A stretch of 63,075 nucleotides of DNA, the filler included, from Octopus bimaculoides (Eukaryota), in assembly GCF_001194135.2 (NCBI RefSeq). It is 8 parts of 8 records of this genome, joined end to end, with 100 filler letters (N's around TTAATTAATTAA, not from the genome) between each part and the next. Parts side by side here need not be neighbours in the genome. Positions count along the whole stretch, not along the records: positions 1 to 17,183 come from NC_068982.1; positions 17,284 to 36,458 come from NC_069010.1; positions 36,559 to 40,747 come from NW_026354698.1; positions 40,848 to 46,780 come from NC_068992.1; positions 46,881 to 54,358 come from NC_068991.1; positions 54,459 to 56,264 come from NW_026365038.1; positions 56,365 to 60,959 come from NC_068986.1; positions 61,060 to 63,075 come from NC_068997.1. One strand, written 5' to 3'. The position numbers were made by a program, and so were the translations under genes. The notes beneath the pieces are model-generated. The model saw only the letters and a list, made by a program, of their open reading frames with translations, did no database searches and was not told the origin of the DNA. Positions 304 to 62,040 of this stretch are shown piece after piece (positions within the stretch are counted from its first letter, which is position 1; each line of letters starts with the position of its first letter).

Positions 304-581
304 TTTTATCGTAACACTGCTGCTTAAGTCTCTCTGGGAGATTTATAATTAGATCATTTCTAATATATATATATACTAGAAATATGTTACAAAAACAGAA
401 TAGAAACTACACGTGGACATGTAAGGGGAATGTAAGAAGAAAAATAAGCGAAAATGCACATTGGAAATCAAAAAGAATAAAGGCTTTTTATGAAAAGTAA
501 CGATAGTTATATACAATTAGATGAACTGAGGTATGAATAAAAGTAATAAAAGTCATTATTGTGTATTGTAAAAGAGATCCA

Positions 582-620
582 AAAGCATACCGGTTTCGTA
601 ATATTACTAATCATTGCTTT
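582..620 (-). ncRNA. Minimal type I hammerhead ribozyme-like motif (degenerate core) in the PLE 3' terminus
   Basis: AAAGCA-AUGAUUA-GUA(AUAU)UAC-GAAAC-CG-GUA-UGCUUU: 6-bp stem I, stem II, palindromic stem III ACCGGU, GUA triplet. The core differs from CUGAUGA at 2 positions. Confidence 0.7.
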
Positions 621-808
621 GAATGCACACCGATTACTGAACGGTGTCAGGTCTACTAGTCCCTGTGAAAAAAGATTATGTGTAAGAGAGGTAAGTAGTT
701 CTGGATTTGGTGCAATTAGGGTAGATATAGATTTGTAATGTGAATGGTGTATGGGATGTATGGGGGTTAGTGGTATTAATTGAAAGGTTAGTAGTGTTCT
801 GTATTATG

Positions 809-1358
809 TTATGTATTCATATTTAGTTGTGGAAGATATTTATTGATGAACGTTGCCTCTTTATTCATTTTTTTGTTGTATTGAGGTGTTCTATGAACAG
901 TGATAGAAGTGAAAAATTAGGAAATTAGGATTAAGATTCCTCGCATAACTTTCTATGTGTCCACCGACCTGTATCTGTCTGTACTGTGGGTGGCGGATTT
1001 GCGCTTTGTGGAGAGTGGTTCTTCGACGGAGTGATATTCCTGTTTGGCCAATATAATTATTACCACACCCTAAGCATGTAATGGCATAGATTAGATTTTT
1101 CGAGGCACAGGTGAACTTTAATTTAATCTTAAATATTTCACCTTGTTTGAGGTGGAACTCTGAAACCTCCAAAAGGTGGGGGGACATGTACCACAGTTAG
1201 GTCGACCACATTTTTTCACTTTTGGTTCTGTTGTTAATTGATATAGTCTTGCGCTGGTTAATATTTTTGCAATGATTTAGGTTGCATTTTGCTTTTGATA
1301 ATTTTGTGTGAGCCTAAAATTTTTTTCATTGTCTTATCTCCTGTAAGGAGTGGTAGAT
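809..1358 (-). pseudogene. Frameshifted PLE GIY-YIG endonuclease domain with upstream Cys motif
   Basis: Joining frames gives ...KQPKSLQKILTSARL...VKKCGRPNCGTCPHL...FTCASKNLIYAITCLGCGNNYIGQTGISLRRRTTLHKAQI...EATFINKYLPQLN*. The IY-x-I-x-C-x2-C-x3-YIGQT-x4-L-x2-R-x3-H pattern is typical of PLE GIY-YIG. At least 2 frameshifts or stops. Confidence 0.9.
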
Positions 1359-2119
1359 NNNNNNNNNNNNNNNNNNNNNNNNNNNNNNNNNNNNNNNNNN
1401 NNNNNNNNNNNNNNNNNNNNNNNNNNNNNNNNNNNNNNNNNNNNNNNNNNNNNNNNNNNNNNNNNNNNNNNNNNNNNNNNNNNNNNNNNNNNNNNNNNNN
1501 NNNNNNNNNNNNNNNNNNNNNNNNNNNNNNNNNNNNNNNNNNNNNNNNNNNNNNNNNNNNNNNNNNNNNNNNNNNNNNNNNNNNNNNNNNNNNNNNNNNN
1601 NNNNNNNNNNNNNNNNNNNNNNNNNNNNNNNNNNNNNNNNNNNNNNNNNNNNNNNNNNNNNNNNNNNNNNNNNNNNNNNNNNNNNNNNNNNNNNNNNNNN
1701 NNNNNNNNNNNNNNNNNNNNNNNNNNNNNNNNNNNNNNNNNNNNNNNNNNNNNNNNNNNNNNNNNNNNNNNNNNNNNNNNNNNNNNNNNNNNNNNNNNNN
1801 NNNNNNNNNNNNNNNNNNNNNNNNNNNNNNNNNNNNNNNNNNNNNNNNNNNNNNNNNNNNNNNNNNNNNNNNNNNNNNNNNNNNNNNNNNNNNNNNNNNN
1901 NNNNNNNNNNNNNNNNNNNNNNNNNNNNNNNNNNNNNNNNNNNNNNNNNNNNNNNNNNNNNNNNNNNNNNNNNNNNNNNNNNNNNNNNNNNNNNNNNNNN
2001 NNNNNNNNNNNNNNNNNNNNNNNNNNNNNNNNNNNNNNNNNNNNNNNNNNNNNNNNNNNNNNNNNNNNNNNNNNNNNNNNNNNNNNNNNNNNNNNNNNNN
2101 NNNNNNNNNNNNNNNNNNN

Positions 2120-59200: not shown

Positions 59201-61096
59201 GAATGGAATACTCTCCATTATAGATCTGTTCGGTTGTAGTTGGCATTGGCTAAACAACAGCAACTATAAGTAAAACAAAAACCCCAGCAACATTATCAAC
59301 AACAACAGCTAAAGACTTGCACCCCAGATCACTTGGTGAAGGCAATAAATAACCCTACATGCAAATCTTTTATGTGGTTGCTATTCCTGCTAGAAACTAC
59401 AAATAAATCTTCCTCAAATCGCTCTCGTTTTTCTTAAGAGATAGATCACATTGAATGGTGTCGTCTGGTCCGCTAAACCTAAAAGCAAGACAAGCTCATA
59501 GCGACATTAACACCTTTGGTCATATATCTATTCTATTAAGGTACACATGTGTTTTAGTTAACTGTTTAAAATGTAACGAATACCAAGTCTCCCACAAAAC
59601 AAACGAAATTCTTACCCGTGTTTAATGAGACTAAATAGGGAGTTTAACCATAACATCTATCTTTGTAATGGTTTACAAAAAATTGTTTTAATTTAATTAA
59701 ATCTGGCGTTTTCCCGCCCTATTTTCATTCCTCAATGTTACTTTGAGGATTTTTGAGCTTGCCATGGGAAACACTGGTCTCAGTATTAACACAAATGTTA
59801 TGATAGTATAAACAACAATATTGGAAGCTTAGGTACACTAAGGTATGTAGCACCATCGCCATCAACATTGTAAGAACTCAAACTTTAACTTCTACAACCA
59901 GCATCAGTTGACATCAATGCAGTTAGCAAAAAGAGTATAGGCTTCACTAGCAACAACAAAAACTCACTATTACATCTACAAGTAGTACAAGCACCACTAT
60001 TACTACTACTACCACTGCCACTAGTACTACAGTTACCATTGATGCTACTACTACTACCACCACTACTACTGCCGCTACTTCTGCTGTTGCTCTTATTGCT
60101 AGATCTAACACGGGTGGTGGTCTTGCTGCTCCTGTTACTGCTAGAGACTTATACAGCAAATAACAACAGCCTTATCACCAACATCTTTACAATCACCAAC
60201 ATTATCACTCCGCTACACCACTATCAACACTGATATGACCACAATGATCATTACTTACAAACACCAACACAACCATAATCTCCACCAACATCAAACCTGT
60301 CGCCACCACAGCACCTCCACAACGCCAACAACACAGCTCTATCACCATCAACGTAACCAACATCACTGCTGTTGCCACAAATATGATTACAGTCTGCAAG
60401 ATCACCACAGTCATCATAACTCTTATCACCACCATGACCACCACGTGTACAACTACAAAAGGAAACACCTACGCCAGAATAATCCGTACAAGTACCACAA
60501 CTCTAAACTCCGGCTACTATTATAAAAACCATACAACTAATTATACCAACTCTACCAACATCAAAATTAGCTTGTCTCCCTCTATTACGCTCAATAACAT
60601 ACATCGGTACGCATTATACCACCAGATTACTACCATCGGCTTTACTATAATCATCACCACTAACACCACCACCACCACCTATACCGCCTTCATCATCATC
60701 ATCATCATCTTCCCCATCAACAACAACAACAACAACACTAACAACAGCAGCAAGGACAATATTTCGAGTGAAACATGCACAATTCCTCAGAGATTTCGCA
60801 ACTGTCATGTTTCTTTCCACTGATTCATGTGATGAGATGTGTGTGTGTGTGTGTGTGTGTGTGTGTGTGTGTGTGTGTGTGTGTGTGTGTACATGTGCGT
60901 GTGTGTGTGTGTCTGGGTGTGTATGCAGGTGTGCGAAGGAGAGATGTGTGATGTTAAAGNNNNNNNNNNNNNNNNNNNNNNNNNNNNNNNNNNNNNNNNN
61001 NNNTTAATTAATTAANNNNNNNNNNNNNNNNNNNNNNNNNNNNNNNNNNNNNNNNNNNNATATATATATATATATATATACACATATATACATACA

Positions 61097-61327
61097 GGTG
61101 CATGAGTGGCTATGTGGTAAGTAGCTTGCTTACAAACCACATGGTTCTGGGCTCAGTCCCACTGCGTGGCACTTTGAGTGGATTTGGTAGACGGAAAATG
61201 AAATATGCCCGTCGTATATGAATATATATGCACGTGTGTGAGTGTGTGTGTGTGTGTGTATCCCCTACATTGCTTGACAACGGATGCTGGTGTGTTTATG
61301 TCCCGCAAACTAGCGGTTCGGCAAAAG
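61097..61327 (+). mobile_element. SINE family A, internally deleted and 3'-truncated
   Basis: Head intact, about 45 bp missing between GGCACTTTG and AGTGGATTTGG, second half present after (TG)n. Confidence 0.85.
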
Positions 61328-61847
61328 TATTCGATGGAATATGTATGTATGTTTGTATAAATGAATACAAGCAATAATATAATGAAATATATCAACATGT
61401 ACGTAGTCCATAGGCTTATACATGTGTCTGTATTATGTTCGTATATGTATCAATACTTACACAATATGGTATGGCTGTGAAACATACTACTCCATTATCT
61501 AAACGTGTATATATACATATATATTTCATCGTTGCAATGACTTCTTTTGCTTTATGCCGGTTTGTGAGTACTTACCTAAAAATATTTTGACTCATATACA
61601 TACATACATATAGATACATACCAACATATATATACATATATATATATATATATATATATATATANNNNNNNNNNNNNNNNNNNNNNNNNNNNNNNNNNNN
61701 NNNNNNNNNNNNNNNNNNNNNNNNNNNNNNNNNNNNNNNNNNNNNNNNNNNNNNNNNNNNNNNNNNNNNNNNNNNNNNNNNNNNNNNNNNNNNNNNNNNN
61801 NNNNNNNNNNNNNNNNNNNNNNNNNNNNNNNNNNNNNNNNNNNNNNN

Positions 61848-62040
61848 TATATATATGGGAGAATATACAAATAATAACAACAGACGAGGACAGGTGGTGT
61901 AAATAACAAAAGTATATATTAGTATGACGCTCGGGAATACGGAAAGTCTTTGACGTTTCGAGCTACGCTCTTCAACAGAAAGAATACGGAGACAAGGAGA
62001 AAAACACGGAGAAAAAAAATTGAATAGTGATATTGATATG
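61848..62040 (-). mobile_element. Short non-coding hammerhead-bearing element abutting (TA)n (solo PLE terminus or retrozyme-like)
   Basis: Contains the motif at 61947-61983. The 3' end ...ATTCTCCC runs into ATATATA and a gap flanked by (TA)n. Confidence 0.6.
61947..61983 (-). ncRNA. Minimal type I hammerhead-like motif (CUGUUGA variant core)
   Basis: UCUUU-CUGUUGA-A-GAGC(GUA)GCUC-GAAAC-GUC-AAAGA. Perfect 5-bp stem I, 4-bp stem II, loopless palindromic stem III ACGU, GUC triplet. Confidence 0.75.

Follow-up and report, generated by a model that had tools for sequence, protein, structure and literature searches.

Results

Hammerhead motifs of the window

The window, i.e. the whole stretch of 63,075 nucleotides of Octopus bimaculoides (assembly GCF_001194135.2) analysed here, consists of eight parts joined end to end and is AT-rich draft sequence (32% G+C, 9,963 N) with dense microsatellites. 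Its 53 kb of determined bases carry seven hammerhead-like motifs, one of them in the 3' untranslated end of a Penelope-like element (PLE) that retains the end of an open reading frame (ORF) for a GIY-YIG endonuclease. The motif set as a whole is real, and it is likely that its members are hammerheads from the 3' termini of PLEs with an endonuclease, of which several families would survive here as 5'-truncated copies. Five of them (sites 1 to 5) had been proposed in the initial annotation and all were located where it had placed them; sites 6 and 7 were found by a looser pattern scan (22 rows).

Four of the seven sites possess an intact type I core. The best-formed motif is site 7 (38786-38847, minus strand; core to cleavage site 38791-38842), with the core CUGAAGA, a stem I of 5 bp, a stable long stem II, stem III ACUC-G-GAGU and 39 nt to (TA)28. 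Site 4 (20141-20185, minus strand; core to cleavage site 20146-20179) shows the core CUGAUGA-G, a 6-bp stem II, the non-palindromic stem III AGAACU and 111 nt to (TA)n, and its relative, site 3 (18986-19030, plus strand; core to cleavage site 18991-19025), has the core CUGAAGA, four of six pairs in stem I and 39 nt to (TA)10. Site 6 (19915-19983, plus strand; core to cleavage site 19923-19975) combines CUGAUGA with a long stem II, stem III ACCA-U-UGGU and 33 nt to a TA tract. The cores of the other three, all on the minus strand, are altered: site 1 (582-620; core to cleavage site 588-614) reads AUGAUUA (A3-U8), with a stem I of 6 bp, a palindromic stem III ACCGGU, a stem II that is also a perfect 10-nt palindrome and 212 nt to (TA)n; site 5 (61947-61983; core to cleavage site 61952-61978) is a minimal motif with CUGUUGA (A6U), stem III ACGU and 95 nt to (TA)4 plus a gap; and site 2 (10063-10100; core to cleavage site 10067-10096) is a hammerhead-like remnant with CCCACGA (U4C, G5C), stem III ACUC-U-GAGU and 119 nt to a gap. 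Therefore, the type I folds ascribed earlier to all five original sites hold with an intact CUGANGA for sites 3 and 4, whereas sites 5 and 1 depart from it by A6U and A3-U8, respectively, and site 2, by U4C and G5C, falls to chance level. An extra nucleotide follows A9 in sites 4, 5 and 6. The three palindromic stems III described at the outset are present as written, and the predicted energy of the stem III self-duplex ranges from -8.5 to -10.3 kcal/mol in sites 1, 2, 6 and 7, amounts to -2.2 and -2.3 kcal/mol in sites 3 and 5, and is unfavourable at site 4 (+1.1 kcal/mol).

Sequence kinship was restricted to sites 3 and 4 (score 50 versus a shuffle maximum of 25; one of 28 pairs among eight stretches), in agreement with the proposed four unrelated families among the five original motifs; two stem I pairs differ between these relatives with both sides changed. 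A possible eighth remnant at ~19480-19510 on the minus strand was dropped, its alignment to sites 3 or 4 not rising above shuffles. The exact site-3/4 motif pattern had no match in metagenome, viral and prokaryote collections.

Could such motifs be chance folds in AT-rich repeat DNA? A scored hammerhead descriptor, composed post hoc with the sites already known, was run on the whole window and on 60 shuffles, and its 19 matches in the window were not equalled in number by any of the 60 shuffles at any score cut. Exact cores were matched three times (sites 3, 4 and 7) versus 0.03 per shuffle, one-mismatch cores three times versus 1.0, and two-mismatch cores 13 times versus a mean of 6.95 and a maximum of 14. 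Site 6 escaped this descriptor because its own stem I has decayed, but, as described below, the majority letters of related copies rebuild that stem. Some results do favour chance: six local scans over all seven sites gave no match to the Rfam hammerhead models at E<=10, the whole-window Rfam scan contained no hammerhead and only microsatellite look-alikes among the 150 of 214 matches listed, and none of the seven sites folds better than its own shuffles (z +0.53 to -1.31). Taken together with the shuffles of the PLE 3' end reported in the next section, these data make chance an extremely improbable origin for the set; we consider it ruled out for sites 3, 4, 6 and 7, and very likely so for site 1. 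Site 2 alone is indistinguishable from chance, because two-mismatch cores occur at chance level (about seven per shuffled window), and that it is a chance fold is a reading we regard as possible, if not the favoured one.

Two weaker hammerhead-like matches with a U3-A8 core, at 36124-36157 (minus strand) and 26795-26846 (plus strand), were also noted (0.15 expected per shuffle), stem III being poor in both. The former is inside a ~270-bp stretch flanked by TA-rich tracts, 190 nt before (TA)6.

A Penelope-like element carries site 1

Upstream of site 1, positions 821-1317 of the minus strand encode, in a frameshifted ORF, the C terminus of a PLE protein of the Neptune/Nematis type, with a CX4CXXC linker (CGRPNCGTC) and a GIY-YIG endonuclease; a gap at 1359 cuts the ORF. 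The domain matched PF01541 (E 1.2e-4; minus strand, 894-1172), which bears out the GIY-YIG-coding PLE ORF proposed earlier at this place, and CGRPNCGTC precedes it in another frame. The 3' untranslated end of the element (376-820, minus strand), equivalent to the pseudo-long terminal repeat (pLTR) region, terminates at (TA)6 (364-375), and site 1 stands in it, separated by ~205 nt from the end of the ORF upstream and by 212 nt from that tract downstream. When 150 related proteins were compared with the window by tblastn, matches were confined to 500-1359, with 57% to the relative P0003. A full HMMER search retrieved 1,157 matches at E<=0.001, and a word-index protein search matched one of two near-length candidates and none of four longer ones. 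Five relatives of 744-756 aa have a C-terminal GIY-YIG arrangement, with Pfam reverse transcriptase (RT) domains recognised in four and GIY-YIG domains in four. As judged from its sequence, the site 1 element appears to be of the Neptune type, Nematis being also possible; ~500 nt from the end of a single broken frame are all that is left before the gap (1359-2119), and the RT is absent from them, which precludes placement in a Neptune tree.

Both changes in the site 1 core fall on positions 3 and 8, where A3-U8 is a Watson-Crick swap for C3-G8. With a descriptor allowing any Watson-Crick 3-8 pair, likewise composed post hoc with the sites already known, no match arose when the 3' end of the PLE was shuffled 5,000 times, while the whole window yields 0.14 A-U matches per shuffle. 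Published PLE hammerheads, cited here and below as far as the available text of each source goes, offer precedents for exchanges at this pair: a covarying U3-A8 in schistosome PLEs (PMC4209133) and a G3-C8 that partly rescues the Anolis PLE ribozyme (PMC11167929). Our literature searches did not find an A3-U8 core, which the supplements of PMC4209133 and of 10.64898/2026.07.22.740005 might nevertheless list. Further support for the placement of site 1 in a PLE 3' end comes from a metagenome PLE relative (L001, 41% identity), which has an exact-core hammerhead ~500 nt behind its ORF and thus shares the order of ORF end followed by hammerhead. A second related locus (L002) was discarded as a bacterial-looking false lead.

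In L001 (1115-1150 and 680-700), the exact-core hammerhead is accompanied, in the 3' region, by a handful of CCCTAA units that resemble telomere repeats; similar units occur in the window at 18469-18510. The PLE end is adjoined by an inverted repeat (62-306) with 111-nt arms, 94% complementary and spaced by 23 nt, that looks like a miniature inverted-repeat transposable element or a fold-back element. Upstream of site 2, a broken ORF (10160-10700, minus strand) resembles the ORF2 of long interspersed nuclear elements (LINEs) behind the endonuclease, and its nearest named clusters, which carry Exo_endo_phos (score 0.83), can be taken as a tentative lead. An RT fragment at 55757-56263 on the minus strand (PF00078, E 1.3e-8), unmatched by the PLE proteins, probably belongs to a LINE.

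TA tracts lie close to most of the motifs

The TA context was assessed by recording (TA)5+ downstream of each motif, sites 2 and 5 being scored as misses. The enrichment anticipated by the initial annotation was recovered, with (TA)5+ within 220 nt in five of the seven sites (background 0.178, p 0.003), a figure that is nonetheless inflated because five of the sites had been chosen by a reader favouring TA neighbours. Within 45 nt the tract was present in three of the seven (background 0.048, p 0.003), and the three top-scoring matches, ranked blind to TA, all had it within 120 nt (background 0.106, p 0.001). Tails of 35-200 nt ending at (TA)n or at a gap had been described for the five original motifs, and this largely holds, except that the tail of site 1 measures 212 nt and that sites 2 and 5 end, respectively, at a gap at 119 nt and at (TA)4 plus a gap at 95 nt. 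At 33-39 nt, the tails of sites 3, 6 and 7 are about as long as the tail of 30-40 bp described for a PLE (PMC11167929).

Three inserts are delimited by TA tracts on both sides: that of site 4 (20035-20262, minus strand, 228 bp), which is a 5'-shortened family copy; that of site 7 (38751-39316, 566 bp); and that of site 5 (61856-62131, 276 bp). Sites 4 and 6 are arranged tail-to-tail, pointing into one common TA tract, and none of the seven copies is in tandem. Short repeats dispersed in many copies, and belonging to two or more families, are also present (14340-15728, 21056-21257, 31959-33036, 48144-48582, 49606-50011 and others), with no hammerhead match; we take them to be like short interspersed nuclear elements (SINEs).

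The families of sites 4 and 6 in sequencing data

Family-level data were obtained for two families by mapping two DNA contig sets (~2.36 billion letters) and two RNA runs, each sampled at 6%, on a 558-bp query containing sites 6 and 4 (19706-20263); mapping rows at 20001-20045 were dropped. An index of RNA data listed no run for 18403-20275, an outcome of no weight in either direction. The summed DNA depth of the site-4 element reached 0.6-1.5 million versus ~30-55 for long single contigs, corresponding to roughly 2,000-29,000 copies of the family, since summed contig depth is not copy number and the overlap of short contigs could inflate it up to 16-fold. Among the 40 of 94 variants listed none falls in 20135-20189, whereas the flanks vary; therefore, the majority of the family appears to keep the hammerhead, its non-palindromic stem III included. 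A palindromic AGAUCU stem III, once considered as the consensus of the site-3/4 family, had no counterpart among those listed variants and was discarded.

The RNA reads also show that the copy in the window is incomplete. At position 20244, 348 and 271 reads run into one common sequence (agreement 0.83-0.87) that the window copy lacks, so that the 228-bp "mini-element" is a shortened copy of a family which continues in the 5' direction. This continuation was not found elsewhere in the window (six matches at three mismatches versus 3.7 expected). Behind the same hammerhead there are alternative tails, as indicated by loose ends at 20128 (80 and 135 RNA reads) and 20137, and 73-78% of the RNA reads continue into unlike sequence. 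Joints between opposite strands were detected at 20241/20245 (19 and 5 RNA reads) and 20217/20241 (10 and 2), and occur in DNA contigs as well. Immediately downstream of the hammerhead (20127-20137), site-4 copies further differ in a TTAATC-like unit of 6 nt (120 and 108 RNA reads), a small repeat within the tail.

Relatives of site 6 are far fewer (depth 800-1,500). The majority letters at 19917, 19920, 19921 and 19976, the last contributed mostly by a more abundant relative, lift its stem I from three to seven of eight pairs. Core conservation and stem covariation, named beforehand as a check on the motifs, were thus seen in the site-4 and site-6 families and in stem I of sites 3 and 4, with a scope of two families at the level of reads. 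Over the 3' half of site 6 (19953-19990) depth peaks at 16,000-24,000, a more abundant family sharing that half; a separate peak upstream (19782-19838, up to ~50,000), almost devoid of RNA reads, marks a fragment of another repeat.

Had these families been non-LTR retrozymes (LTR, long terminal repeat), the copies in the window would be stray monomers of tandem 200-400 nt units whose RNA is cut by successive hammerheads and circularised. The type I cores intact in four of the seven sites would suit such elements, among which monomers are common (10.64898/2026.07.22.740005), and so would the head-to-tail joints running from 20211 to 20060 (five reads, run X22) and from 20244 to 20132 (three reads, run X21). 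These joints, however, add up to 8 of 3,890 RNA reads (5 and 3 of 1,896 and 1,994), in an assay where units longer than the 558-bp query would hide them and with a library type that may lose small circles. Moreover, no copy in the window is in tandem, the two RNA strands are nearly equal (549 and 467 reads in the hammerhead bin of X21), no position over 19706-20263 collects read ends in either RNA run, and RNA accounts for ~155 reads per million, at or below the DNA share of 114-3,318 per million (1,000-29,000 copies). An earlier reading of these figures as a 20-fold depletion of RNA was dropped, the depth being possibly inflated up to 16-fold. We thus regard a retrozyme nature as very unlikely, and the initial proposal of non-autonomous ribozyme-processed RNAs goes further than the data on the site-4 family bear out, given its 5' extension, the rarity of joints, the equal strands and the lack of an end pile-up.

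Discussion

According to the reading favoured by our results, the motifs come from the 3' termini of PLEs that encode an endonuclease, several families of which would be represented. The earlier proposal of a link to PLEs that target (TA)n gains from the position of site 1 in a Neptune-type 3' end and from the strand-switch joints of the site-4 family, which resemble inverted truncated PLE copies and thereby support an origin by truncation. It can be envisaged that the GIY-YIG endonuclease of such an element nicks (TA)n and that target-primed reverse transcription begins 30-210 nt downstream of the hammerhead, usually halting early, which would leave single 200-600-bp inserts with TA on each side but without an evident duplication of the target. 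The hammerhead would then be active, as a dimer or with the assistance of a protein, solely in tandem transcripts of the parent element, lone copies being decaying passengers. The targeting of (TA)n by the enzyme, the PLE parentage of sites 2 to 7 and any cleavage by these motifs are thus presumed parts of this scheme. Of sites 1, 4 and 7, the last would be the likeliest to cleave in monomeric form.

Several observations weigh against truncation of PLEs as the whole explanation. Besides the selection of sites behind the wider TA figure, a PLE ORF is linked to one of the seven sites in the tblastn comparison with 150 PLE proteins, which leaves room for non-autonomous amplification. The 5' continuation of the site-4 family can be followed for 30 letters only (median loose length 57-59), and hence may end without an ORF. 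In addition, within some 40 nt on the 5' side of the site 4 hammerhead the DNA depth (X1) drops 16-fold, 1.13 million giving way to 71 thousand, and this drop could delimit a defined short element, although it is also explicable because the window copy departs there from the majority, which loses short contigs.

These points lend some substance to the alternative that the family of sites 3 and 4 arose from a PLE by internal deletion and forms a dispersed, non-coding element of defined length, transcribed by read-through and copied in trans into (TA)n by a Neptune-type protein, in a SINE-like manner. Its high copy number by the rough depth ratio with a conserved hammerhead, the steep depth drop and the lack of a PLE ORF adjoining sites 2 to 7 would all fit, and in a rotifer the pLTR sequence is enough for integration in trans (PMC3846280). 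Yet the extension of the family past the 5' end of the window copy, the several tails behind one hammerhead (loose ends at 20128 and 20137) and strand-switch joints typical of truncated autonomous copies speak for truncation, and we consider this derivative rather unlikely. Also unlikely, but worth stating for its reach, is the broader proposition that sites 3 and 4 represent a dispersed, non-tandem, non-coding element, which has reached many thousands of (TA)n-inserted copies by borrowing a Neptune protein and stands, in the manner of a SINE, between a truncated PLE and a retrozyme; to this would be added a natural A3-U8 core in the site-1 PLE family and, for the genome, a hammerhead load among the densest and most diverse on record.

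Under the truncated-PLE origin that we prefer, a known pattern extends to a genome for which no report was found, and explains part of the DNA lying between TA tracts, which break short-read assemblies. If the site-4 family did multiply without coding sequence, it would provide the missing step between PLE ends and retrozymes; and if an A3-U8 or A6U core were family-wide, it would reveal the hammerhead cores that are retained by selection.

Comparison with known systems

Published work already describes dispersed minimal hammerheads that stem from PLE truncation, a bias towards (TA)n and the derivation of retrozymes from PLEs. Other related literature includes PMC6765202 and PMC12602865. For cephalopods our literature searches found no report of hammerheads, with the proviso that the supplements of PMC4209133 and 10.64898/2026.07.22.740005 might list some, and the repeat annotation of Octopus vulgaris, in its available part, describes 31 recently active PLE families with no mention of hammerheads.

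A close parallel is provided by the minimal hammerheads of metazoan PLE pLTRs, which number thousands per genome in many families and are mostly single, probably deriving from truncated PLEs (Cervera and De la Pena 2014, PMC4209133). They share with the motifs described here the type I topology, a helix I of 4-6 bp, a tiny or palindromic helix III, the extra nucleotide after A9, the many unrelated families per genome, the prevalence of single dispersed copies ascribed to truncated PLEs and a covarying 3-8 pair, which is U3-A8 there. The octopus set differs in the A3-U8 of site 1, the A6U of site 5, the non-palindromic helix III of the abundant site-4 family and the density of seven motifs in 53 kb.

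Neptune-clade PLEs resemble the site 1 element in their C-terminal GIY-YIG domain, CX2-5CxxC linker, hammerhead behind the ORF and short tail, and have a (TA)n-type insertion bias, ascribed there to the linker, as well as inverted truncated copies (Craig et al. 2021, PMC8557442); in contrast, the element in the window retains no more than the final ~500 nt of a single broken ORF, with the RT absent. The Anolis PLE protein cuts AT-rich DNA and internal starts of reverse transcription define its 30-40-bp tail; hammerhead cleavage is dispensable in vitro, and RNA-seq reads do not terminate at the cleavage site (PMC11167929), just as RNA ends do not pile up there in the site-4 family.

Finally, non-LTR retrozymes (PMC7229834; 10.64898/2026.07.22.740005) are likewise non-coding units of 200-600 bp with type I hammerheads and kinship to PLE ends, but they form tandem repeats with at least two hammerheads and abundant circular RNA, whereas none of the seven copies in the window is in tandem and the RNA seen is neither abundant nor stranded. 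In a recent preprint retrozymes are argued to be non-autonomous PLE derivatives, with cleavage in one of nine dimers (Li, Clavereau and Pollet 2026, 10.64898/2026.07.22.740005).

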